64,000 nt of DNA from an uncultured Methylomirabilota bacterium (GCA_963705305.1 OY970067.1:4256001-4320000); one strand, 5' to 3'. Counted from the stretch's first letter, positions 46,706 through 60,159 are shown. Numbers and translations: made by a program. The notes: generated from the letters alone by a model not told the origin.

Positions 46706-47054
46706 CTACAACCGAACCACCCGGATGCCCATCTTCCTTGCCGCGCGGGCGAGCTTCGCGTCCAGCGTCGCGAGCTCGAACCCCCTTCGCTGAGCTAGCT
46801 CCAGATAGGCTGCATCGTACGCGGAGAGGCCATGCTCTCGCGCCAGATTGTGCAATCGCCAGAACGTCATCGGGCATCAGTACGACGTCCGTTTGAATCG
46901 GCAGCATGCCGAACAACTCGGTAATCCGCCGGCCGTCCAGATCGGACAATCGCCCGCGCCGCTGGGCCATCGTCAGTCCATTGGCAAGCTCGTACCACCA
47001 CAACGCAGGAACCCAAAATGGATTCCCCACTGAGGTGCGTGCCAGCAGACGATC
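46706..47054 (-). pseudogene. vapC: VapC/PIN toxin, 3' part (interrupted by the Tn7-like element; also frameshifted near 46850-46890)
   Basis: DRLLART...WVPALWWYELANGL then, in another frame, LAREHGLSAYDAAYLELA...LATLDAKLARAA, stop at 46706. Confidence 0.85.
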
Positions 47055-47436
47055 TGCGACTTCCATTGAAGGGTGGCCAAGGTTTTAGGCATAAAGCGGC
47101 CACGAAAATCGCTAACGTGCTGATTTTGTTGATGGGTAATTGGGCGCTGGATTTCGGAGAAATAGGCATAACGTGGACGTGGGTCGAAATCGCAGCCATA
47201 ACGTGGCCATGAGTCTGCCAACATCTTTCTGGCGTGAGTGTGCGCCGCCCTGAGATCATGGGGTGAGGTGCGGCCGACGGGTGCCGGTCGACTGCGAGCA
47301 CGCCTTGGGTGTGCGATTCGGAAGCACTACTTCCTCGTCAGAAAAGGACGATCGAACTGAGTTGGAGAGACTCCGCTTGGGTCAAGGCGTAAGACATCCC
47401 CTGGAGGAACGCGACCTCCAGTCACGAGCTCAATGC

Positions 47437-48039
47437 TCAAGGGTTCCTTTGCGGGTGCGCGAGTGGCCGCAACCAGCGGGGAGCCGGCTCCCGTATCTCG
47501 ATGACCTTTCCATCTTCGAAGCGGGCAACGAGCCGGTACGGCGATCCCAGATCATCATTATCATACACCCAAACGTGGGGCAGCTCTGCGATGGCGGCCG
47601 TGAGATTGCTGAGCGTTCGGGGAAAGCGCGACTGAAGCTTCTCCGCGGGAACATCGTGACCGCCTCTGCTCACGCGCATCGCCACGCGCTCTTCCGACAC
47701 CTTGGGCCCGCTGATCCCGATGAAGATGAGCACCACGGTGTACCCGGCCTCCACGGCTTCTCGGAGGAATTTCCGCTTCTCTCCCACCGGATCCGAAAAC
47801 ACGGTCTCGAAAACAAAGCTCTCCCGCTGGGTGACCAGTTCCCGGCGGACGGCATCCGCCAATTGAACCGCGGTAGCCGGATCGACATTCAGGTCACGGG
47901 CCAGGACATCCGCATTGATCAGCCGCAACCCTGTCGGTTGGAGGTGGGCATAATAGAAGCTTGACTTACCCGCCCCGTTAGGCCCCGCCAGGGCCACGAT
48001 GCTCGGGCGCTGGTCCAGGTAGGGGGGCAGCAATTTCAC
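47437..48039 (-). CDS. Zeta-toxin-like P-loop ATPase/kinase
   Basis: LAGPNGAGKSS, INAD, SFVFETVFS, RVAMRVSRGGHDVP; GTG overlaps the upstream stop. Confidence 0.85.
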   Translation of the reverse strand: MKLLPPYLDQRPSIVALAGPNGAGKSSFYYAHLQPTGLRLINADVLARDLNVDPATAVQLADAVRRELVTQRESFVFETVFSDPVGEKRKFLREAVEAGYTVVLIFIGISGPKVSEERVAMRVSRGGHDVPAEKLQSRFPRTLSNLTAAIAELPHVWVYDNDDLGSPYRLVARFEDGKVIEIREPAPRWLRPLAHPQRNP

Positions 48040-48452
48040 CGCTTCGCCGTGGCGGCGTGCGACGTTCTCCGCCCGGCGGGAGCTTTCTTCATCGGCCTGA
48101 ATTCCCGATGAACGAACCGCCCGAGGGTTCGCTGGCCGGTCGCGTCGATCCGAACCAGGAGGCCCGGTGCCCCCAGCGCGGGCTCGTAATGCGGGTCCGG
48201 CTCGCTCTCGAGGTAGGCCTGGAGTCGCTTTCGCCCCTCGGAGGTCTCGACGGCGGCGAGGCATTCCGATAAGGGCGTCCTCGCGCCTGCCCGAGCCAAC
48301 GCCATCGCGTGGACGCCTTGCAGGAGCGGCTCGATGGCGCGACCCAGCCGCGCCCAGTACTCGATCTGGCCTGCAAGCGAGCGTTCGGCCGCTTCGCTAG
48401 CGAGCCGCGCATCCAGTACCAAGCTCGTCGAAAGTTTGACTGGCTGACTCAT
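48036..48452 (-). CDS. ParD-like antitoxin
   Basis: MSQPVKLS..LV.DAR...RSLAGQIEYWARLGRAIE. Confidence 0.8.
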   Translation of the reverse strand: MSQPVKLSTSLVLDARLASEAAERSLAGQIEYWARLGRAIEPLLQGVHAMALARAGARTPLSECLAAVETSEGRKRLQAYLESEPDPHYEPALGAPGLLVRIDATGQRTLGRFVHREFRPMKKAPAGRRTSHAATAKR

Positions 48453-48708
48453 CAACTCTCCCTCCCTGGCTTTTCAACATGGGATATGCTCATCTCTACT
48501 GTAGAGTAGCATTTTGCTACCTCAATGTCAAAATGTCCTTTCTCCCGTCTCGTTGCCTCCGTCCTGTTCCTACCGACACACAAACTTGAGGCGGCCTAAT
48601 CTGGTTGGCCGCGATCGCGCTCTCGCCCAGTCCTACCAGCTTGATGTTCGGAAGCTTGGCGTCGATGGAAGGCGACTATGCCGAGGGGGGTCAGGGGAAG
48701 TTCGATGG

Positions 48709-48993
48709 TCAGTTGTCGCTCAGGATCTCTCTGATCCGCTCCGCAATGTCTCGCTGGACCCATCGCAGGACGGAATCAATTCCTGGCGTCGCATAGCGGT
48801 GGGCTTTCTCGTCCTCGAAGCCGATGTGCTGTTGCACGGCCTCGAGGAAAAAATAGTACCCCGCCAGGCTCTCGTCCCAAATCCCAGCCTTTCGATCGCG
48901 GTCCAGCTCCCGCCGCGCTGCCGATAGGCCATAGTAGATCGCCATCCATTTCTCGCGATCCAGCCGTATCGGTTTGTTGGCCTCGGTTGCCAT
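48709..48993 (-). CDS. Hypothetical protein (94 aa), transposon cargo
   Basis: GAGG RBS before ATG 48993; protein-like composition. Confidence 0.55.
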   Translation of the reverse strand: MATEANKPIRLDREKWMAIYYGLSAARRELDRDRKAGIWDESLAGYYFFLEAVQQHIGFEDEKAHRYATPGIDSVLRWVQRDIAERIREILSDN

Positions 48994-49437
48994 TATTTTC
49001 CTCGTGCAGATTCCACAGCGAGTGCGCTTTCCTTCGCCCACAGCCTGCGTGGGAGCTTACCGGTCGCTCAGCTCCTTCCCATGTATGCAGCCCAACATGA
49101 CCTTGCCTACACACGGGTCGAGCTGCGGGCACATTGTCTCAAATCCTAAGCAGCGTACAGGAACATATTTCTGCTGAGCAGTGAATCCCCTCCCGGCGGG
49201 AGGTCGCCAGGCGGTCACTTGAGAGTCTCCACTTGAGTTGGCAAGTGTGGCATAGGGCCGGCGTGCCAAATCCCTCCCACTGGAGGTTCACCGCTCTGGA
49301 GCCCAAGCCCAAAGCGCTCGGAGCGTACCGGCCGATACGCTCGCAGGTTCATCTGCATACATAGAATGCCAGCCCACTGCAATCTGGCAACGAAACCCGA
49401 GCCTCTCTTGATGCCGTTTCGCAGTGAGCAATGACAT

Positions 49438-49980
49438 TCATTTCCTCTTTCGCGGCGTTGGTACTTTCAGCTGCTGCTTGGTGGTCTGTCTAGACACGTC
49501 CACGTCGATCAAAAGTAGGCCGCCACCTCTGAGCAATTGCTCAACTGTGGCCAAGGCGTTTTCGGCCGTTGCTAGGATGGCCCGAGCGATGACCCGCTGA
49601 TCGGGGGTTACCTCCTCCTCGAACGTTCGGGCTATACCCACCACCATCCGTACCGAACCAATGATGGCTGCAGCCGCCTCTGGCGTAATCATCACGTCCT
49701 CGTGCGCACGCGACTCCCGGTACCTGCGGAGGAGGGTCGCGACAGGCTCAGCATCGTCCACGTTGTCTGGGGTAGCCCGGGGATCGAGTGCGAGTAGGTA
49801 GGCTACTGGTACCTTTAGAATCTCGGCGATTTGCCGGAGATTTACTTCATCCGGCACGTTCTTTCCGGTTATCCACGTAGACACCGCATTCTTCTTCAGG
49901 CCAAGTTTTGCTGCGAGTTGGGTCTGATTCAACCTTCGTGCATCCAGCGCCCGTAGGAGTCGCTTGCCCAAGAGGTTCAT
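49438..49980 (-). CDS. XRE-family HTH regulator divergent from tnsAB
   Basis: LNQTQLAAKLGLKKNAVSTWITGKNVP...IAEILKVPVAYLL. Confidence 0.88.
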   Translation of the reverse strand: MNLLGKRLLRALDARRLNQTQLAAKLGLKKNAVSTWITGKNVPDEVNLRQIAEILKVPVAYLLALDPRATPDNVDDAEPVATLLRRYRESRAHEDVMITPEAAAAIIGSVRMVVGIARTFEEEVTPDQRVIARAILATAENALATVEQLLRGGGLLLIDVDVSRQTTKQQLKVPTPRKRK

Positions 49981-50009
49981 GCGTGAGCCCTCGCCTACAA
50001 AAGTTTTGC

Positions 50010-50038
50010 TTGACACGCGTAGTATCGCGCAGTATCGT
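50010..50038 (+). promoter_or_regulatory. Candidate sigma70 promoter towards tnsAB
   Basis: TTGACA-17 nt-TATCGT; AGTATCG direct repeat at 10-nt spacing within it. Confidence 0.6.
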
Positions 50039-50415
50039 TTCGTAACAATTCCAGGCTGCACGACCCGTTACCAACAAATTACCACAACGCAATCTTCCTG
50101 GTCAAGTTGAGATCTCTGATGACTGAAGTCGTGAGGAATAAGGCAGATGGGCCTGGGTCGAGCTGCCAGCACAGCACCGGCCAGACTGACTGTGCCAAGG
50201 CCGCCACCCCAAACGAGGGGCCAGCGTCATGCAGATCAGGGAGCCTGGCTCATGCGCGAGCGGAGTCTGATGGAGGAGCAGGTTGTGAATCGGTCCGGGC
50301 GCATACCACCCTATCGAACGAGCAAGGGAGAGACGACTGCAGACGGGGCGTGTAGGAGACCAGCACTTATCCTGGCAGCGATGCGAGAAATCTCCTTTAA
50401 GGGGAGGGCAACACC

Positions 50416-53133
50416 ATGATGACCGACGAAGAATTTGCGGAGTGGTGCCGCAAGTGCAATGTCTCGGAAGAGGCTCAGAAGATGGTGGTGGAGATTCGGA
50501 ACTCTCCGCCATCCCGACGCGTGGGCGGGGGACCAGGAGGTGTCTCTGGCCGCTTCCCCTCCCGCAAAACGCGCACGGTTCTCCAGTTTTCGAGCCATCG
50601 GGTGGTATTGCCCTTCCTGCAGCAGATGGACCTCGACCCGAAGGTCAAAGAGATATGGGATCAGCCGCCACCCATCCCCCTCGAGTACCAGAAGGCGAAC
50701 GGGCGATGGGTGAGCATCCGACAGACCGCAGACTTCTTCGTGCTCTACGAAGATCGGGCCGGGTGGGTAGAGATCCGAACAGAAGAAGAGCTCGTCAGGC
50801 TGAGTCAGGTCGCGCCCAATCGGTACCGGCGCGACGAAGACATGGGCTGGAATACGCACGATGACGGGTGCTGGTGCTGCCCGCCGGCTGAGGCCTACAC
50901 CGCGCAGTATGGCCTCGTCTACTACGTCTGGTCCGCCGACGAAATCAACTGGAATTACCAGCGCAACATCCATTACCTGGACGAGTACATCGACGCCCCC
51001 GCTCCCCCCGCCGCTGTCCAAGACCACCTGTGCAAGCTCGTCGCGGACGAACCGGGGATCACCCTGGAGGCGCTTGCGGCGAAAGCGGCGCCAGAGGCCA
51101 GCCGGGACGCGATCTACTGGATGATCACCCACGGTGCCCTCTGGGTGGATCTCTGCGCTCGTCCCATTAAAGACGACGACTTGGTTCAGGTCTTTGTGGG
51201 CCAGGACACGACCGGCGCCCAGGGGCTTGCAGTGGAGCCCGCTCGGCCCGGCCGGCCGTGCGTGGTCGACTTCACCGCGGGGAGCTCATTCTGGTGGGAC
51301 GGGCGCTGCTGGACCGTCGCCATGGTTGGGGACTCGCAGTTGATGCTCCAAGGCGATGACGAGAAGCCCCTCTTCTTGCCGCTCGCCACGCTCGAAGTCC
51401 TCGTGAAAGAGGGAAAGATCACCGGCACCACCCAGACCTCTCCGAACTCGGCCATCGAGCGCCTCTTGGTCCGGGCGAGCGACGCAGACAAGGAGATCGC
51501 CAAGCGCCGCCAGCAGTTCGTGCTCCCGCATCTCGCTGACGAGTGGGTGCCCGAGGAGGAAATGCCCGGGCGGACGCTGCGCCGCTGGGTGCGCAAGTAC
51601 CTGCGCGCAAAAGAGAAGTATGGGTGGGGATTTCTCGGGCTCCTGCCGCGGATCGCCTGGCGCGGAAACCGGGAACCGCGATTTGATGATGGCATGCTGG
51701 AACTCGTCAAGGTCATCATCGATGAGGAGTACCTCAAGCCCACGCAGAAGAACAAATTCGCCGCCTGGTCATACTTGGTGCGGGCCTGCGACGGGCTGAA
51801 CGCCCATCGCAGTACCGGCGAAAAAGAGCTCAAGCCCCCCTCTTTCGCCTCGTTCTCCCTGATGCTGGACCGGATCTCGTTGCATGAGCGCGTGCGCCAA
51901 CGTCGGGGACGGAAGGCCGCCTATCCCTACGAGCCATTTTACTGGTACCTGAGTATGACCACCCCGGTTCACGGCGACCGGCCCTGGGAGATCGCCCACA
52001 TTGACCATACCCCGTTCCCCGTCGAACTGCGGTGCTCGAAGACCCACGAAAACTTGGGCTGCGCCTGGTTCACCCTCATGGTGGATGCCTTCACCCGGAG
52101 GGTCCTGGCCGTGTACCTCACGTACGACCCGCCCTCCTACCGGTCGGTCATGATGGTCCTCAGGGATTGTGTCCGACGCTGGCGGCGGCTCCCGCGGACG
52201 ATCGTGGTCGATGGCGGGGCGGAGTTCCACAGCACCTACTGCGAGACGCTCCTGGCCTTCTATGAGGTCATCCAGAAGACACGGCCGGCTGGGAAGCCGA
52301 GATTCGGGTCGGTGGTGGAGCGCCTGTTCGGCACGACGATGACCGAGTTCGCCTACCTCCTGACCGGCAATACCCAGATGGGCGACGGCAATCTCCGGCA
52401 GATCACCCCCTCGGTCGACCCCAAACGGCTTGCGGTGTGGACCCTCGGCGACTTGTACGAGCACCTCTGCCATTACCTCTTTGAGACGTATGACACCAGC
52501 ACGCATCGGACCCTGGGTCAGAGCCCACGCGGGGCCTATGAGGCGGGGATGGCGCAGGCCGGAGCCCGCTCCCACCGGCTGATCCCCTACGACCGGGAGT
52601 TCCTGATCAACACGCTCCCGACAACGCCGAAAGGCACCGCCACGGTTCAGCCCGACGGTAGCATTAAGATCAACAATCTCCATTACTCCCAGCAGGCTCT
52701 GCGCGACGCCCGGGTCGTGAAGCGACCCGTGCCGGTGAAGTATGACCCGTTCGACGCCGGGCATGCCTTCGCGTTCGTGCGTGGCGAGTGGGTTGAGTGT
52801 TTTGCCCGCAACTATGCCGAATTCCAAGGCCGCACCGAAAAGGAATTGATGCTTTACTCGAGCGAGGTCAAGAAGCGGCTCCAGTTCTCCTCCGACGACC
52901 AACTCGAGGAGGCCCGGGAGCGGGCAGAGACGCAGGGGCGGGTCAAGGACAAGGAGGAGGCATTGGCCCAGCGGTGGCGGGACCTAGAGACCTCCCAACT
53001 CCACGACGGCCTCACGCTCCCCGCAACGCGTGCCCAGGAGACGCCCGCCGAGTTGCCTGAAGCCCACCCCCTCCCCTCACCCGAACCGCCGGCCGAGACG
53101 TCCGAAGAGCCCGAATACTACGGAGAACTCTAA
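50416..53133 (+). CDS. TnsA-TnsB fusion transposase
   Basis: N-terminal TnsA-like (SGRFPSRK, DQPP, TADF); C-terminal DDE (AHIDHT, IVVDGGAEF, RFGSVVERLFGT) and Mu-transposase-like tail (VKYDPFDAG). Confidence 0.92.
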   Translation: MMTDEEFAEWCRKCNVSEEAQKMVVEIRNSPPSRRVGGGPGGVSGRFPSRKTRTVLQFSSHRVVLPFLQQMDLDPKVKEIWDQPPPIPLEYQKANGRWVSIRQTADFFVLYEDRAGWVEIRTEEELVRLSQVAPNRYRRDEDMGWNTHDDGCWCCPPAEAYTAQYGLVYYVWSADEINWNYQRNIHYLDEYIDAPAPPAAVQDHLCKLVADEPGITLEALAAKAAPEASRDAIYWMITHGALWVDLCARPIKDDDLVQVFVGQDTTGAQGLAVEPARPGRPCVVDFTAGSSFWWDGRCWTVAMVGDSQLMLQGDDEKPLFLPLATLEVLVKEGKITGTTQTSPNSAIERLLVRASDADKEIAKRRQQFVLPHLADEWVPEEEMPGRTLRRWVRKYLRAKEKYGWGFLGLLPRIAWRGNREPRFDDGMLELVKVIIDEEYLKPTQKNKFAAWSYLVRACDGLNAHRSTGEKELKPPSFASFSLMLDRISLHERVRQRRGRKAAYPYEPFYWYLSMTTPVHGDRPWEIAHIDHTPFPVELRCSKTHENLGCAWFTLMVDAFTRRVLAVYLTYDPPSYRSVMMVLRDCVRRWRRLPRTIVVDGGAEFHSTYCETLLAFYEVIQKTRPAGKPRFGSVVERLFGTTMTEFAYLLTGNTQMGDGNLRQITPSVDPKRLAVWTLGDLYEHLCHYLFETYDTSTHRTLGQSPRGAYEAGMAQAGARSHRLIPYDREFLINTLPTTPKGTATVQPDGSIKINNLHYSQQALRDARVVKRPVPVKYDPFDAGHAFAFVRGEWVECFARNYAEFQGRTEKELMLYSSEVKKRLQFSSDDQLEEARERAETQGRVKDKEEALAQRWRDLETSQLHDGLTLPATRAQETPAELPEAHPLPSPEPPAETSEEPEYYGEL

Positions 53134-54317
53134 TGCCATCTACCTTGCCACGCTTCCCTCCCCCTCTTCTCCAGGCGCCAAGCGCCGAGCGGATTGCGTA
53201 CCTTGTAGGGTATACGATGGCACATCCGTTGCTCAAGACGGTTCTCAAGCGACTCTCGAGCGAAATCGCCGACTCCTTTCGGAACTCCCTGATCTTCGTT
53301 CCCGGCCTCACGGGGGTGGGAAAGACGACGGTCCGCAGGCTGATCGAGGAAACTCTCACACAGGAGTTAGAAGAGGATCTCAAGACTGACCGGGAGCGAA
53401 TCCCTGTCGTCAGCGTCGAAGTCGTGGCGCCAGAATACGGCAAGCTCAATTGGACCAACCACTACTTTAAGCCGACCCTCCGGGTGATTCAGGATGTGCT
53501 GATCGGTCGCAAGCGCCGCCTGGGTCCGTCCCCCAATCCCGAAGCGGCCCCATATGACTTGCTCGGCCCACGGGCGACAGGTGCCGTCTATTATGAGGCG
53601 GTTGTCGAAGGGCTGACCCACCGGCGTCCCAGGGTTGTCCTCATCGACGAAGCGCAGCATTTTCTTCGGGTCGGCCCCGGACGCAACGCGTTGGACTACG
53701 TCGATGTGATCAAGAGCATCGCCAATCGCACGCAGACCGTTCACATCCTGTTCGGGACGTTCGAGCTCCTGGGCCTTCTTGATTTAAGCGGACAGCTCAG
53801 CCGCCGGAGCATCATCGTGCCTTTTCCGCGTTATCACTGTGACACGCCCGAAGAGCAGAAGATGTTCCGCCACGTCCTTCGAACGTTTGCACTCCAGTTG
53901 CCGCTCGAAGAGCCGCCCGATCTCGCCGGAGACTGGCAATTCCTGTATGAATGCACCCTGGGCAGCTTGGGTCTCCTGAAGCAATTGCTGGTCAAAGCAA
54001 TCGCCTCGGCCTACCGGGAGAATCGCCTGGTCCTCACGCGGGCCGACTTGGAAAAGGGGGCCCTCCTCCCCGCACAACGAAACCGGATCCTCCTGGAGGC
54101 TGCTATCGGGGAGAAGCGATTGGCAGGAGGAGGAGATCTTCTGCCAGAAGAGTGCGCGATCCTGGGCCTGGTTCCCCGGGTTCCCCCTCCTCGCCCGCCA
54201 GCGCCTAAGACTCCGACACAGGACCGGAAGCTCCACCCCGGTCGACGCAAGCCAAAACGGGACCCAACGGGAGGTTCCGGCAATGGGTCTAGCAATGGGT
54301 CCGGATCACCCAGTTGA
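53133..54317 (+). CDS. tnsC: TnsC/TniB AAA+ ATPase
   Basis: Walker A GLTGVGKTT, Walker B LIDEAQH, KSIAN, QLSRRS; TAATG coupling to tnsAB. Confidence 0.92.
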   Translation: MPSTLPRFPPPLLQAPSAERIAYLVGYTMAHPLLKTVLKRLSSEIADSFRNSLIFVPGLTGVGKTTVRRLIEETLTQELEEDLKTDRERIPVVSVEVVAPEYGKLNWTNHYFKPTLRVIQDVLIGRKRRLGPSPNPEAAPYDLLGPRATGAVYYEAVVEGLTHRRPRVVLIDEAQHFLRVGPGRNALDYVDVIKSIANRTQTVHILFGTFELLGLLDLSGQLSRRSIIVPFPRYHCDTPEEQKMFRHVLRTFALQLPLEEPPDLAGDWQFLYECTLGSLGLLKQLLVKAIASAYRENRLVLTRADLEKGALLPAQRNRILLEAAIGEKRLAGGGDLLPEECAILGLVPRVPPPRPPAPKTPTQDRKLHPGRRKPKRDPTGGSGNGSSNGSGSPS

Positions 54318-54536
54318 CACGTGGTCTGATCGTGTGGCTGGGTCGTCAGGATGCGGCGTCTATCCCGTGGCAGCGCGCGGCGAGGCAAGGCAGCAATGTC
54401 GCGCGAGCGGGATCTCGATACCTGAGCTCCCCGCAAGGGTGGGACGACTGACAGGCATAACCATCACGGATGTTTCAGCTGGGACCCGGAGGAGACCGTC
54501 CGGTGCATGAGGCGATGGGACAAGGGGGGATCGAGG

Positions 54537-56396
54537 ATGCCGAATCTCTTTGATTCGTGGGACCTGACGCCCACGCCCTTTCCGCCACGGAGTCGCCTGT
54601 ATTCGTTAGGGCCAATGGGTGTGGGGACTCCCATGGTTGAGAGCTTGACCGGTTACCTGATGCGCTTGGCCATGGCGCATTCTGTTGGGGTTGGGGACCT
54701 GCTGCGTGCAGAAGTGCAAGATTGGATGTCTCCAGGGAAGCCTATTGTGCCTACGGCCATATGGAACGGAGTCAACGGGGTGGTTCGCACAACCCGGGAT
54801 CTAGTGCAGACCCTTGAACGTTTGACGCACCGGACGGATCTGGTTTACCTCACATTGCTGCCCCTTGAGTCACTCCTCCCGACTACCCGACTTATACGGA
54901 AGAAGCGGGCGTGGTGCCCGTACTGTTATGAGGAGATGGCCGCCGCCAGCGCGATTGTATATGAGCCACTCCTATGGTGCCTGCAAGCGGTCGAGGTGTG
55001 CCATCGGCATAAGGTCTGGCTGTACACGACGTGCCCCCATTGTTCCCAAATGCTCCCACCGTTGGCGGCGATGGTGAAACCAGGCCATTGTTCGCGATGC
55101 GAGGCGTGGCTTGGGACACACACGTCCCCCCTCGAGGACCCGAGCCACCGGAGAGCCACGGTCGATCAGTGTTGGATGGCAGAGGCTGCAGGAGAGCTGG
55201 TGGCATGTTGCCCTCGGATTGATCCTGCCGTACTGAAAGCCAACCTCCGGACCGCCTTATCAGCGCGTGTGGACAAGCTGGCCGGCGGCAACCGGAATGT
55301 GCTCGCGCAGGCGTTTCAGGGCTCTCGAGTATCCTTCCATGGGTGGGTTGCCGGCACGCAGATGCCTCAGCTCGGCACCCTGCTCCGTCTATTGCGTTAC
55401 CTAGGATTGCCGGTACGTTGTCTGCTCGATCCGCAGCAATTCGTGGGTGAAGCGGGGAATAGGGGCGAGCAAGCGCTTCTGACCCATCGCGCAGTGGTTC
55501 CGCATCGGAGCCCCTCCCAGATCCGCGCTGTCCTGAAGGCTGTGCAGGGGGAGCATCCTGCTCCAAGCCTTTCAGAGGTGGCACAACGTCTCGAATACAC
55601 TTCACCGAGGCGCCTCCGTGCGGTCGATCGTGCAGGTTGTCAGAAGGTCGATGAGAGGCATCGTAACGGATCCAGCGCGGCCCGAGGTAATGATCTACGC
55701 CCCCCATCTGAGATCCAGCAGGCGCTTGAGGATTCTCTGGCGTGCCCGCAGCCAATATCGGTCAACCGAATGGCCTACCTGTTTGGATACTCGAATCCCG
55801 CCTCACTCCATTGTCGGTTTCCGGAGCTGTGCCAGGCGATTGTGGTGAAGCTCGCCACATGGAAGGAAGAAAGACGCAGGGCGATCAGGCGGAGGCTGAA
55901 GGCGGCGGCCAGGGAGAAGCCGCCGCCCACTTTGGAAACGCTCACGAAGGAGTTTGGCCTCCACTCACAAAAGCCGCTCCGAAGGCTCGAGCCGGCGTTA
56001 TGTGACCAAATCATCGCACAGCGCAGGGCGTGGATCAAACGGAAGCGAGCAGAGCTTGCACGACGATTGAAGGCGGTTCTGCGAGAGGAGCCGCCTCCTT
56101 CTGCGACGGCGGTCCGGCAACGCCTCGGCATTTCGCCACGAGCAGTCTGGTACCGCGAAACCTTCAAAGCCATCGCACGGAGATACGCGATCCACAGGAG
56201 GCAACTTAAACAGGCGCGAATGAACACATCTCGCAACGAAATGCGCGAGATCGTGAACCGACTGCACCGCCAAGGTGTCTACCCGTCAAGAGGTCGGGTG
56301 ATGAAGTTGCTGAGCCCACGATGTGTCAAAAGCAAGGCATGGATTCAGAATGCAATCAGGCAGGCTCGGAAGGACATAGAGAGGCGCCAGAAATGA
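54537..56396 (+). CDS. tniQ: TniQ/TnsD-like target selector 1 (619 aa)
   Basis: VESLTGYLMRLAMAH, AWCPYC, EPLLW, CHRH, CPHC, GHCSRC; four repeated C-terminal HTH-like modules. Confidence 0.9.
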   Translation: MPNLFDSWDLTPTPFPPRSRLYSLGPMGVGTPMVESLTGYLMRLAMAHSVGVGDLLRAEVQDWMSPGKPIVPTAIWNGVNGVVRTTRDLVQTLERLTHRTDLVYLTLLPLESLLPTTRLIRKKRAWCPYCYEEMAAASAIVYEPLLWCLQAVEVCHRHKVWLYTTCPHCSQMLPPLAAMVKPGHCSRCEAWLGTHTSPLEDPSHRRATVDQCWMAEAAGELVACCPRIDPAVLKANLRTALSARVDKLAGGNRNVLAQAFQGSRVSFHGWVAGTQMPQLGTLLRLLRYLGLPVRCLLDPQQFVGEAGNRGEQALLTHRAVVPHRSPSQIRAVLKAVQGEHPAPSLSEVAQRLEYTSPRRLRAVDRAGCQKVDERHRNGSSAARGNDLRPPSEIQQALEDSLACPQPISVNRMAYLFGYSNPASLHCRFPELCQAIVVKLATWKEERRRAIRRRLKAAAREKPPPTLETLTKEFGLHSQKPLRRLEPALCDQIIAQRRAWIKRKRAELARRLKAVLREEPPPSATAVRQRLGISPRAVWYRETFKAIARRYAIHRRQLKQARMNTSRNEMREIVNRLHRQGVYPSRGRVMKLLSPRCVKSKAWIQNAIRQARKDIERRQK

Positions 56397-56621
56397 AAGC
56401 CCTCGGAGAGGGGCGGCTCGAAGATCTCTTCATGGATGGGGTTGAGGTGCGGGGCGATGGCGGGCACGAGATTGCGCCAGCTCGTTTTCATTTGCCGGAC
56501 GCTGACTGTCTGGCCATCAGCTCGTATGGCAATCGACGGGAAACGGCAGTCGGTCCGTCCGGCAGGCACATGGACATTGTCTGTCGTGGCCGGGATGCAA
56601 TCAGGCAGGGAGGAGTGGAGG

Positions 56622-58482
56622 ATGCCGAATCTCTTTGATTCGTGGGACCTGACACCCACGCCTCTTCCGCCGCGGAGCCGCCTGTATTCGTTGACGCCAA
56701 TGGGCGTGGGGACTCCCATGGTTGAAAGCTTGACCGGTTACCTGATGCGCTTGGCCATGGCGCATTCTGTTGCGGTGGGCGACCTGCTCCGGACAGAAGT
56801 CAGAGGCTGGGGGTCAGCGAAGCGGCCTACGGGGATACGGAACGCTGTTAACGGGGTGGCTCGCCAAACCCGTAACCTGGTAGACACTGTTCAACACTTG
56901 ACATTCCGGACGGACGTAGCCTGCCTCTCCTTGTTACCCTTTGCGTCATTCCTCCCGAGTACGCGGCTTGTTCGGGGGAGCCGGGCTTGGTGCGGACATT
57001 GTTATGAGGCAATGGTCGCAGACTGCGGCGTCGTCTATGAGCCCCTGCTCTGGTGCCTGCAGGCGGTCGAGGTGTGCGCCCGGCACAAGGTCTGGCTCCG
57101 CACGATCTGTCCAAAGTGCGCTCGGGCGCTCCCGCCATTGGCGACGACTTCAAGCCCTGGCCATTGTTCGCGGTGTGGGGTTTGGCTTGGGGCAACCGCG
57201 TCTTCGCAGGTCGACCCAGGACAACGGGAGCCCACGGCCGATCTGTGTTGGACGGCAGAAGCCGCGGGGGAGTTGCTGGCATGGGGTCCTCGAGTTGACC
57301 CGGCCGGGCTGAGAGCCAATCTTCGAACGGTCCTGTCATCGTGCGTGGAAGAGTTGGCCGGCGGCAACCGTTTCGCGCTCAGTCGGGTACTCCAGTTTCC
57401 CCAGACAACCTTCCATAGTTGGGTTGCTGGCAGACAAATGCCTCAGCTTGGCAGTCTCCTGACGCTATTGCGCCAACTCGACCTGCCGGTCCGCTGCCTG
57501 GTAATGCCCCAGACGTTCCGTGGGTTGCGGGAAGATTCAGTGTGAGCGAGCCTTGGCGAGCGAATTCGGAGTACATGCGTATCGGAGCCAAAGTCAACTC
57601 CGCGATGCGATGCAACCCTTTTTGCTAAAGAATCCAGCTCCAAGCCTTATGGAAGTCGCCCGGGATCTTGGTTACACCTCGCCGGACCGCCTCTATGAGG
57701 CTGATCGTGCGACTTGCGAAAAGATCGTCGCGAGGCGTCGGGAGGAATTTCGCGCTGCACGAGTCTATAGACTGTGTTCCTCGGCCGAGATCCAGCGGGC
57801 GCTCGAGGATTCTCTGGCGGAGGCCCGGCCGATACCGATCAGTCAGGTCGCACGCCTCCTTGGGTATTCATATTGTACCCCGCTCATCAGTCGGTTTCCG
57901 GAACTATGTCGAGCTATTGTGGCGAAGATTGCGGCGTGGAAAAAAGAATTATGCAGGGCGATCCGGAGGAGACTGAAGGCTGCCGCGAGAGAGAAGCCGC
58001 CGCCGCCCCTGAGGGCTCTTGCAAGGGAGTTTGAGCTGCCGACCGCTGATTTGCTCCGGGACCTCGAGCCGGAGCTGTGTCGCCAAATCGTTGCGCGGCG
58101 TTTTGCATGCATAAAGGAAGAGCGGGGAGTGCTTGCTTGCCAATTGGAGAAGGTTCTACTGGAGGATCCGCCTCCTTCCGCGAGCGCGATCCACAAACGG
58201 TTCGGCATTACGCGGTCAGTTGCCATGAAGTGGTATCACAAGACTTTTAGGGCAATTGCGCGCAGACACGCACTTTACAGGAGGCAAGTCAAACAAATGT
58301 GGTTAAACGCGTGCCGGAACGAAATCCGGGAAATCGTGAACCGACTGCACGGTGATGGCGTCTACCCGTCCGATGGACAGGTGCTGAAGTTGCTGAGCCC
58401 ACGGTTTACTAGAACAGACCGAGTGTGGGTCAATAATGAAATCAGCGAAGCTCGGAAGGGCATAGGGCGGCCGCATAAATGA
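56622..58482 (+). pseudogene. tniQ: TniQ/TnsD-like target selector 2, +1 frameshift at 57518-57519
   Basis: Collinear paralog of selector 1; TTC C GTG GGT versus TTC GTG GGT in copy 1; both halves otherwise open, so possibly an assembly error. Confidence 0.85.
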
Positions 58483-59101
58483 GCAGTCTCGAAGTAGGGC
58501 TGATGTAGGATCTCTCAGCGGATGGCGAAAGTCACGAGCTCGCCCCAGTTCGTCTTCAGCTCGCGAACGCCGAGGGTCTGGGCTCCACCCCAATTGGCAA
58601 CGACGAGAAACCGCAGTCCTGCCCCGTCCCCGAGGCAGGACGTCATGACCTGTGGCCGAAATGGGGCGGTGCTAGCTCGCACGGAGGGACTGCCTCAGCA
58701 GAGTAACTAGGCCTCCGAGTAAGCAAGTTGTCTGGGCCGGTGCAATCGGGCCGTGCGGAAATGCGTCAGGGTTGGTCCACTTTCCTCTTTGTGGTCTCCA
58801 CAGATGCCGGGGGATCATCGAAATGTCGCCGAGTCAAGGGCTCGGTCTGTAAATTGGATGAGTTCATCCTTCGCACAGTAGCGGAAAGCCTCCCCGCCGA
58901 CTTATTCTGCAGGCCGTCTTGGTGGATCCTATACGCGGGTAGGTTACCACAACCAAGAATCCTGTCGCCGCTGGATGGCTATGACATCTTGGAACCTGCG
59001 GAAACGTACGAGATCCAAGTGGCACCGGACCGATCCCGATATTCCAGGTTGGTTGGATTGGCCATTTGGCCACTTTATGCCAGAAGTCGCAGTCGCACAC
59101 A

Positions 59102-59174
59102 CCGCCTGTCTGGACCGCTCATCTGGAAGGGCCCACGCCAATGCGACTGAACAGTCCAGCACGCATTCGCTCAT
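59102..59174 (-). pseudogene. vapC: VapC/PIN toxin, 5' part
   Basis: MSECVLDCSVALAWALPDERSRQA; ATGA overlap with the antitoxin stop; joins in frame to DRLLART at 47054. Confidence 0.88.
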
Positions 59175-59425
59175 CGGCGTCGGCCCTGCGCGATTAGCTC
59201 TCGGACATTCACCTTTCCGGGGATCCGTTGTCGAATCTCCCGGAAAGCCTGCAGAGCCTCCCTGGGCGTGAGGCATCGCTCTCCCGCCCCGACGGGTGTC
59301 AAGCGGGCCACGGCCTTGCCTCGACGCTTTATCACAAAGGTGGCTCCTTGCTCGGTCGCGCGCAGCAGCTCCGACAGGCGCGTTTTCGCCTCGAAGGCGC
59401 CGACAGTGATCGTCTTACCCCTCAT
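59171..59425 (-). CDS. Phd/YefM-family antitoxin
   Basis: TVGAFEAKTRLSELL...FVIKRRGKAVARLTP...LIAQGRR. Confidence 0.9.
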   Translation of the reverse strand: MRGKTITVGAFEAKTRLSELLRATEQGATFVIKRRGKAVARLTPVGAGERCLTPREALQAFREIRQRIPGKVNVRELIAQGRRR

Positions 59426-59451
59426 CGGTCTCCTCCACTGGCAGTTGACTG

Positions 59452-59667: not shown

Positions 59668-60159
59668 ATGATCGACCTCTATACTGAATTCAAGACGGCA
59701 CTGCAGGCCCTCGAAGCGGCTGAGGTTCCCTACGCCGTGTGCGGTGGCCTTGCCTTGATGGTGTACCAGCTACCCAGGGCAACCGTTGACATCGATCTGG
59801 TCCTACCGGCCGACGCGACTGATGCTTGCGCTGCGGTGCTGGTGCCGCTCGGCTATCGGCCCCATCCTCGGCGGATGCGCTTCGCATCCAGCGGCGTCCA
59901 GATCCTTCGGTTCTACAAAGTGGAACCGGGGGGGCCGGACGCGCTGACCCTGGACTGCCTCTTGACCACTCACCCGACGATCCTCGAGACGTGGCGCAGC
60001 CGCGTTCGCGTTCCCTTCGAGGACCGGACGATCTGGGTCGTCTCTCTCGAAGGGCTGATCGCATTGAAGCAGCTGAGGGGATCGCCCCTGGACTTGCTCG
60101 ACATCCAGGCCCTGCGAGAGTCCGGCCCGAGAACACACCCGGGAGAAGACGATGCCTGA
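59668..60159 (+). CDS. Nucleotidyltransferase-fold protein
   Basis: YAVCGGLA...PRATVDIDLV; VVSLEGLIALK...DLLDIQAL. Confidence 0.8.
   Translation: MIDLYTEFKTALQALEAAEVPYAVCGGLALMVYQLPRATVDIDLVLPADATDACAAVLVPLGYRPHPRRMRFASSGVQILRFYKVEPGGPDALTLDCLLTTHPTILETWRSRVRVPFEDRTIWVVSLEGLIALKQLRGSPLDLLDIQALRESGPRTHPGEDDA

Follow-up and report, generated by a model that had tools for sequence, protein, structure and literature searches.

A probable complete Tn7-like transposon of the fused-TnsAB clade, with TGC/GCA ends, inside a vapC toxin gene of an uncultured Methylomirabilota bacterium

Tn7-like transposons in which TnsA and TnsB are fused form a clade that includes the type I-B2 and type I-D transposons associated with CRISPR (CASTs), as set out in the excerpts of Hsieh and Peters (PMC9881144) and Faure et al. 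(PMC10293859) used here. In the former, so far as those excerpts go, about 20% of the clade is without TGT/ACA ends, McCAST is active despite TAC/GTA ends, the left end of clade members has sites in both orientations, and this left end adjoins the target in >99% of insertions (PMC9881144). For CyCAST, the homing distance found by experiment is given in part of the latter as 30-33 nt downstream of a tRNA (PMC10293859). Here we describe a Tn7-like element in a window, by which we mean the whole 64,000-nt stretch of DNA analysed, from an uncultured Methylomirabilota bacterium (GCA_963705305.1 OY970067.1:4256001-4320000), with positions counted from its first letter. Taken as a whole, the explanation that we consider probable is that 47055-59091 is a complete 12,037-bp transposon of the fused-TnsAB clade that lies inside a vapC toxin gene and has TGC/GCA ends. 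An earlier reading of the window, made from the sequence alone, had placed a Tn7-like element within vapC downstream of phd, and PIN and PhdYeFM matches together with the tnsAB-tnsC-tniQ genes bear this out.

The interrupted gene encodes a PIN domain downstream of, and overlapping, a phd/yefM gene, which is the arrangement of VapC/PIN toxins paired with Phd/YefM antitoxins. The parts of the locus are as follows.
46706 to 47054, minus strand: C-terminal part of vapC, codon 25 onward (PIN match, homolog alignment; assembly frameshift near 46863).
59103 to 59174, minus strand: N-terminal 24 codons of vapC (open reading frame (ORF) reading, homolog alignment).
59171 to 59428, minus strand: intact phd/yefM-type antitoxin gene (PhdYeFM_antitox match).

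Pfam places PIN on the distal vapC piece (E 1.9e-05, 46706-46870) and PhdYeFM_antitox on the gene upstream of vapC (4.1e-08), which overlaps the vapC start at 59174 by ATGA. On the minus strand the N-terminal piece reads MSECVLDCSVALAWALPDERSRQA, with its last codon, GCG, at 59105-59103, and the reading restarts at 47054 with DRLLART..., such that the break falls between codons 24 and 25. Two related genomes have intact vapC homologs with the readings ...SRRA-DRFF... and ...SRPA-DRFL..., at an unchanged distance from WVPALWWYE, and a third homolog has the uninterrupted DNA GCG GAT CGG at the insertion point; since homologs keep the same spacing across the break, the split vapC has no missing codon. 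Against intact phd-vapC pairs, the vapC piece is 61-66% identical and phd 57-61%. Our short-read evidence consists of low-depth contigs from one study of soil runs. One of these (46818-46969) has one base fewer at 46863, which puts the distal vapC in a single frame with a homolog-like ...PDDVWRLHNLAREHGL...; the vapC frameshift thus reflects either an indel of the assembly or strain variation. The empty-site allele that had been looked for in related genomes was not found: the same-genus genome G020 offers only a 65-66% identical vapC beside an IS3-like gene, at a different locus.

Within the element the order is cargo (a zeta-like toxin with a ParD-like antitoxin, an ORF without family and an XRE regulator), tnsAB, tnsC, tniQ1 and tniQ2, and the tniQ-side end points to the 5' part of vapC and to phd. 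The transposition genes are the following.
50416 to 53133, plus strand: tnsAB fusion, 905 amino acids (Mu-transpos_C, rve, homolog alignments).
53133 to 54317, plus strand: tnsC, AAA+ regulator (AAA_22 1.6e-11, TniB 1e-09).
54507 to 56396, plus strand: tniQ1, 629 amino acids, long TnsD-type, likely start 54537 (TniQ 7e-16).
56436 to 58482, plus strand: tniQ2, tandem paralog, in frames 56436-57545 and 57520-58482, likely start 56619 (TniQ match, repeat comparison).

These genes place the element in the fused-TnsAB clade. A TnsA-like N-terminus and TnsB lie in one ORF, and a tnsC AAA+ gene and two TniQ genes follow directly downstream, an order that relatives share. The 905-amino-acid ORF matches Mu-transpos_C (2.9e-08) and rve (3.2e-06, below Pfam's cut-off), and its nearest non-self database homologs have 42-46% identity, are about 900 amino acids long and mostly carry PF08722, rve and Mu-transpos_C. 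The N-terminus of the window protein has no PF08722 match of its own in Pfam; its residues 5-297 align gaplessly with PDB 9bw1 chain M (9bw1_M, 1e-61). TniQ2 is collinear with TniQ1, with 67% identity to residues 10-314 and 54% identity to residues 313-629, and the two tniQ paralogs are the only repeat family inside the element. The tniQ2 frame break (57520-57545) corresponds to residue ~313 of TniQ1 and may be an assembly indel like that at 46863; none of the short-read contigs spans it. With all larger ORFs accounted for, there are no cas genes and no CRISPR array or CRISPR-like repeats in the element, so it is not a CAST.

The element is single-copy in its one-contig 5.65-Mb genome, in which a search for further copies or solo ends gave only chance-level short matches (E above 1), and neither end sequence matched viral contigs. 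Its G+C content is 60.6%, against 64.9% for the window. Such elements are rare among kin: of 61 related genomes searched, 2 have TnsAB, and of the phylum's 251 genomes 2 have TniQ1, namely the window's own and G026, whose TnsAB has 45% identity. An alignment query found 590 TnsAB relatives, the best at 40-50% identity, and we kept 80 loci, from Cyanobacteriota, Acidobacteriota and Chloroflexota; a search of genome contigs with exact peptide words of TnsAB gave no close relatives. All kept relatives have tnsAB-tnsC-tniQ, with cargo between the upstream end and tnsAB and the last tniQ adjoining the other end.

We refer to the ends by the genes beside them; in the usage of PMC9881144 the cargo-side end is the right end and the tniQ-side end the left end.
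47055 to 47209, plus strand: cargo-side end, with terminus TGCGACTT, degenerate terminal site 47063-47079 and direct sites 47088-47102, 47165-47179 and 47195-47209 (motif search, alignment A2 below).
59048 to 59091, minus strand: tniQ-side, target-proximal end, with terminus TGCGACTT at 59091-59084, site 59083-59067 and inverted GGCCA core 59064-59059 (motif search, A2).

The sequence-only reading had pointed to a sequence shared by the two ends and to repeated GGCATAA-type motifs as candidate TnsB sites, and both suggestions were upheld. The sequence TGCGACTTC occurs 3 times in the window against 0.54 expected (2 of 100 shuffles reach 3), and two of the three copies sit inverted, exactly at both break points. 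The motif GGCATAANGNGGCCA, with up to 2 mismatches, matches 10 times where 1.67 matches are expected (no shuffle out of 100 attains this count); copies at 47088, 47165, 47195 and 59081-59067 face inward and behave as candidate transposase-binding sites. By contrast, a scan for TGT...ACA inverted pairs gave nothing above background (best 18/28). The termini of relatives have the form TGT(G/C/A)ACTT, with 12 nt between this and (T/G)GCC; the cargo-side end has a second, directly oriented site, and the tniQ-side end an inverted one. We aligned both window ends with 12 ends from 6 relatives (alignment A2). TGT marks the start of all 12 relatives' ends at one shared column, 20 nt ahead of the (T/G)GCC core, and the window ends join without gaps as TGCGACTT, with T21, G22, T40, G42, C43 and C44 invariant; the sole difference is at column 23, where all 12 ends of relatives have T and the two window ends have C. 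With its second direct site, the window-left end is of the cargo-side type, and the window-right end, with its inverted GGCCA core, is of the tniQ-side type. The ends thus have the organisation of the clade, with several candidate TnsB sites, both orientations at the target-proximal end and the terminus at a fixed distance. Because both ends fit gaplessly at the family distance, we place the element at 47055-59091 with its left end whole. To judge from A2, both termini are whole and have TGC...GCA in place of TGT...ACA. Direct reading confirms that the left end lacks TGT, as had been noticed, and the suggestion that the left terminus was trimmed or misassembled is set aside by the gapless fit in A2 and by a short-read contig (47029-47179) that is identical to the assembly. 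An ATG in the cargo-side terminus (47064-47066) faces outward in frame with the distal vapC (MEVA-DRLL...); a VapC minus its first 24 residues, and without the first conserved Asp of PIN, could be made from it.

The sites that relatives occupy are of several kinds. Terminal inverted repeats are clear in 20 loci, with perfect 5-bp duplications in 14, and 41 loci have a credible tniQ-side terminus. For 19 of the 41, ARAGORN places a tRNA (Ala, Leu, Val, Thr, Lys or Gln) with its 3' end 30-33 nt away from this terminus; L023, a Peltigera cyanobiont strain, for example, lies 32 nt from a tRNA-Val. Nine more have a common tRNA-like flank, and a group I intron is present there in L045, the one locus tested, as expected for intron-bearing tRNA-Leu from what PMC9881144 says of such sites in the part used here. 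Thirteen of the 41 are in or at protein genes. Two insertions in acidobacterial metagenome-assembled genomes (MAGs) are at the second or third codon of ssb (L041:16096 and L072:15367; Pfam SSB), where the duplication starts TG, so that the element's terminal A rebuilds the ATG start. Two others, in different MAGs (L046:10455 and L074:13848), occupy the same position of a homologous HNH-like ORF (...PDH|RHPKGMGGAWRDDH...), which looks like a recurrent attachment site inside a protein-coding gene. Methyltransferase genes are the sites in L036 and in L066, whose element lies beside the gene, and the remaining insertions of this kind are at other genes. The premise that TnsD-guided elements spare genes is thus too general for the fused-TnsAB clade, given that relatives have entered an HNH-like gene and the first codons of ssb. 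On its tniQ side the G026 element has a typical TGT terminus, which lies between genes and upstream of a methyltransferase-like ORF; a search over 8 kb did not reveal the other end. L066 and L080 have two or three tnsAB-tnsC-tniQ sets on one contig and L071 has a second family-type terminus 51 nt past the tniQ-side end, which suggests tandem or nested insertions at one site.

Why the element lies in vapC can be approached through its selectors. A quick maximum-likelihood tree of TniQ proteins, made after removal of L064, a row that had masked residues, pairs TniQ1 with TniQ2 as sisters (support 100) and places the pair in one clade with the selectors of L066 and L046/L074 (support 99); every selector of a tRNA site falls elsewhere. 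The window end itself adjoins vapC codon 24 and is not 30-33 nt past a tRNA. The side that it faces, vapC codons 1-24 and the end of phd, is the better conserved one, with a mean identity of 0.67-0.72 per 24-nt bin across six homologs; just past the insertion point the mean falls to 0.38. We tentatively propose, at somewhat short of an even chance, that vapC/phd is the cognate site of the element and is read by a long TniQ paralog, either in the conserved 5' block of vapC or at the end of phd. To our search, no paper linked Tn7-like elements, vapC and an attachment site, and the main text of Faure et al. contains neither 'toxin' nor 'vapC'.

Several observations weigh against this proposal. 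The tree is a quick version only. The tabulation of relatives' insertion sites that had been called for did return protein genes, as given above; this vapC/phd family is present in 0 of 81 relatives' loci. Among 251 genomes of the phylum, 45 vapC-matching places outside the window were found and none was shown to be split. This search gave matches in 37 of the 251 genomes, the window's own included and the unpublished G216 and G217 counted, with a partial match in G140 left uninspected; one match starting at residue 19 proved to be a continuous gene with a frameshift. Moreover, Tn5469, a member of the same clade, inserts without a fixed site according to its published description (PMC9881144). 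The same observations favour an off-target or untargeted event, in which the true selector sites are elsewhere, at a tRNA or another gene, and vapC was a chance or weak look-alike site at which the insertion persisted, the loss of a toxin being harmless when its antitoxin is retained; the abnormal junction described below also fits such an event. We regard this alternative as nearly as probable as homing on vapC/phd, though well under an even chance, with other explanations taking what remains. Against it, Tn7-like cores are held inactive without a selector, as stated in the part of PMC11406308 used here; the tniQ-side end faces the conserved vapC block and not the variable sequence beyond it; and the elements of the selector clade are found at protein genes, in one case at a recurrent position. 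In addition, relatives of TniQ1 in metagenome contigs amount to 4 loci with 31-40% identity, and no selector relative closer than 40% identity was found in the collections searched, so the absence of a second vapC insertion is weak evidence.

The abnormality lies at the right junction. The uninterrupted target is ...CAGACGATC|CGCCTG..., from codon continuity with homologs. On the left, the flank CGATC stands directly before TGCGAC; on the right, the terminus GTCGCA is followed by GTCGCACACAC and then by CGCC.
47050 to 47054, no strand: CGATC, presumably the one copy kept of a 5-bp target duplication that was to be expected (placement beside the terminus, target continuity).
59092 to 59102, plus strand: 11-nt filler GTCGCACACAC between the element terminus and vapC (junction reading, A2).

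The vapC frame closes only when 47055-59102 (12,048 nt) is taken out, and the surplus on the right is therefore 11 nt, not 10. The sequence-only reading was right that excision rejoins vapC in one frame; the interval that it gave, 47055-59101, leaves one base extra. The 10 extra bases that it assigned to the right end are 11 and lie outside the element, as does the ACA (59099-59101) that it took for a canonical right terminus, which A2 places beyond the element. The interval 59092-59102 is outside the element, and no vapC base has been lost or duplicated. There is, as had been reported, no 5-bp target-site duplication: one CGATC stands at the left and 11 other nt at the right. The first 6 nt of the filler repeat the terminal GTCGCA, and GTCGCACACAC occurs once in the window. 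The proposed check against reads could be carried through on one side. The left junction is as assembled in a 151-nt contig (47029-47179) with 0 differences, which has 26 nt on the flank side against a bridging rule of 31 nt. Natural copies also show small irregularities at the tniQ-side junction, since in the Nostoc relatives L040 and L060 the duplication on that side is offset by one base (AACTA/ACTAG and ATAGG/AATAG).

Two points count against our account of the ends and junctions: the right junction has no read cover, with its 11 nt resting on an assembly that departs from the short reads by at least one indel (46863), and TGC is found in 0 of 37 credible tniQ-side termini of relatives (36 TGT, 1 TAT). 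The first of these leaves room for an assembly artefact, in which a real 5-bp duplication has been obscured and the 11 nt stem from consensus errors of a long-read metagenome assembly. The one-base difference at 46863 breaks the vapC frame, tniQ2 is frame-split too and no contig covers 59092-59102. To turn CGATC into GTCGCACACAC, however, needs 6 extra bases and substitutions, whereas the error shown is a single-base indel, and the left junction is exact in short reads; we consider an artefact unlikely. Still less likely is that the true termini are TGTGTGCGAC-TGCGACTTC..., with canonical TGT/ACA ends and the duplication CCGCC, and that a later 14-bp deletion of 4 bases of the left duplication copy and the first 10 bases of the left end immobilised the element: the right end would then finish in ACA (59099-59101) followed by CCGCC, with one C left at 47054, in keeping with the TGT rule among relatives (36 of 37), but the terminus would lie 30 nt from the GGCC core against 20 nt in 12 ends of 6 relatives and in the further termini of relatives listed, the deletion must have stopped exactly where the family terminus begins, and one deletion does not explain the C at position 3 of both ends.

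The TnsAB protein offers a possible source for the abnormal junction. Among 72 aligned homologs, the window protein alone has S in place of E at position 59, V in place of E at 64 and R in place of K at 121, and it keeps D106 and E119; all 71 copies that were matched in the relatives' loci have E..E and ExK. We take positions 59, 64, 106, 119 and 121 to be the ES..E / D / ExK motif of the restriction-enzyme-like TnsA fold, with a presumed catalytic glutamate among them. We found no paper that gives the catalytic residue numbers of Tn7 TnsA. The E...D...ExK nuclease motif of TnsA is thus not intact in the window protein. The TnsB DDE triad (D530, D599 and E635) is invariant among the homologs, the window included. 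The other 71 proteins have 84 columns with conservation of at least 95%. Of these, the window protein departs from 7 of the 25 that fall in residues 1-330 and from 3 of the 59 that fall in residues 331-905 (Fisher p 0.006). By these alignments, the TnsA nuclease part looks inactive or strongly impaired and the transposase part looks maintained. A D106A mutant of McCAST gives cointegrates, as reported in the section of PMC9881144 used here. In L082 (Nostoc), an in-frame stop lies within the TnsA motif region of tnsAB (...LFVI*TNS...).

We propose, as a possibility that we rate below an even chance, that faulty processing of the 5' strand by the altered TnsA left a flap at the tniQ-side junction. 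In the normal case, TnsA trims the 5' end to a 3-nt flap and the host then fills a 5-nt gap. Here, TnsB would first nick the 3' ends and join them to the 5-bp staggered target CGATC, and a TnsA part with E59S, E64V and K121R would then fail to make a clean cut in the 5' strands. A short 5' flap, derived from the donor flank or made during repair, would be ligated to the target 3' end on the tniQ side, with no gap filling. One strand would thereby have, at the left, the TnsB-made joint with the complement of CGATC and, at the right, a free target 3' end facing the element's 5' end; replication that fixed this strand would give a normal left junction with CGATC and, at the right, the flap in place of the second CGATC.

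Three considerations argue against this scheme. A flap does not explain the GTCGCA repeat in the filler, since a chance match of donor flank would occur about 1 time in 4,000; the hexamer repeat points to synthesis on a template during repair. Without TnsA, cointegrates are to be expected, by the account in the excerpt of PMC11406308 used here; these resolve to normal duplications, and loss of TnsA alone predicts no scar. Lastly, the TnsA changes may be later than the insertion. Taken together with the proposal on targeting, the boldest form of our account is that one TniQ paralog homes on the conserved 5' block of phd-vapC loci and that a nuclease-dead TnsAB fusion leaves flap-derived scars, a combination that we put forward as conjecture, with the balance of probability against it.

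The cargo region contains the following, genes of the toxin-antitoxin kind among them.
47437 to 48264, minus strand: zeta-toxin-like P-loop kinase ORF, cargo, true start uncertain (Zeta_toxin 4.6e-11, AAA_33 2.8e-08).
48036 to 48455, minus strand: ParD-like antitoxin, cargo (ParD_like 3e-12).
48709 to 49041, minus strand: ORF of 110 amino acids, cargo, without family match (ORF and Pfam search).
49438 to 50061, minus strand: XRE-type helix-turn-helix regulator, divergent from tnsAB (HTH_3 7.6e-10).

An AbiEii-like nucleotidyltransferase ORF (59668-60159) adjoins phd, and the neighbourhood is rich in toxin-antitoxin genes: this ORF, phd-vapC and the element's own zeta/ParD-like pair.

If vapC/phd is indeed a cognate site, a toxin gene would be a dedicated Tn7-type attachment site, at which the toxin is killed, the antitoxin spared and the element's own zeta/ParD-like module brought in. 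Since phd-vapC modules are common on plasmids and mobile DNA, the site would then serve as the element's 'mobile-DNA' pathway, and a vapC pathway would stand alongside the HNH, ssb and methyltransferase gene sites of the nearest selector relatives. Together with the Acidobacteriota relatives, the element points to a little-studied long-TniQ branch that uses protein-coding genes of mobile DNA and not tRNA genes, with sites at the ssb start, an HNH-like gene, methyltransferase genes and perhaps vapC. Such selectors are of practical interest as protein-guided, site-specific integration tools. For the clade as a whole, the window ends argue that termini be called by the distance to the first binding site and not by TGT/ACA. 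A natural fusion with an altered nuclease motif and a kept TnsB bears on the question, as posed in the part of PMC9881144 cited here, of why PmcCAST gives cointegrates and McCAST none.

The closest described systems are the fused-TnsAB elements, namely type I-B2 PmcCAST, type I-D McCAST and CyCAST and their non-CRISPR kin, with which the window element shares, by the published descriptions so far as used here (PMC9881144, PMC10293859, PMC11406308), a TnsAB of about 900 amino acids, tnsC and a TniQ of the long TnsD type. These kin, too, often have a second TniQ, cargo lies between one end and tnsAB, and tniQ adjoins the other, target-facing end, which has sites in both orientations and a terminus 20 nt before the (T/G)GCC core. 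Unlike the I-B2 and I-D CASTs, the window element is without cas genes or a CRISPR array. It differs from its kin in its TGC/GCA termini, changed TnsA motif residues and lack of target duplication; in its insertion inside a protein gene and not 30-33 nt past a tRNA; in having as its two TniQ proteins close tandem paralogs, not one large and one small; and in its host, which belongs to a small soil phylum with this TniQ type in 2 of 251 genomes. Two other described cases involve the disruption of genes. Tn6022/AbaR-type elements in comM likewise use an attachment site inside a protein-coding gene and inactivate it, in the accounts excerpted from PMC10293859 and PMC9881144, and Tn5469 of cyanobacteria is, by its published description in PMC9881144, a fused-TnsAB element with a gene-disrupting insertion and no known attachment site. 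Targeting of comM involves TnsF and a small TniQ and recurs in many genomes, whereas the window offers one case with long TniQ proteins. With Tn7 itself the element shares TnsB (DDE), TnsC (AAA+) and a TnsD/TniQ selector, asymmetric ends with several transposase sites, and the 5-bp stagger implied by the geometry of the window target. In Tn7, TnsA is a separate, active protein that cuts 3 nt outside the 5' ends. It is the tnsA-side right end of Tn7 that faces attTn7, downstream of an undisrupted glmS; the window element turns its tniQ-side end to the target and splits the gene. The value of the case therefore lies in a natural fusion with an altered nuclease, a junction scar and a selector branch that uses protein genes. 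What is known here is the membership of the clade; what distinguishes the element is its TGC/GCA termini, its TnsA motif, its tandem long TniQ proteins, its host phylum and its position in a toxin gene.

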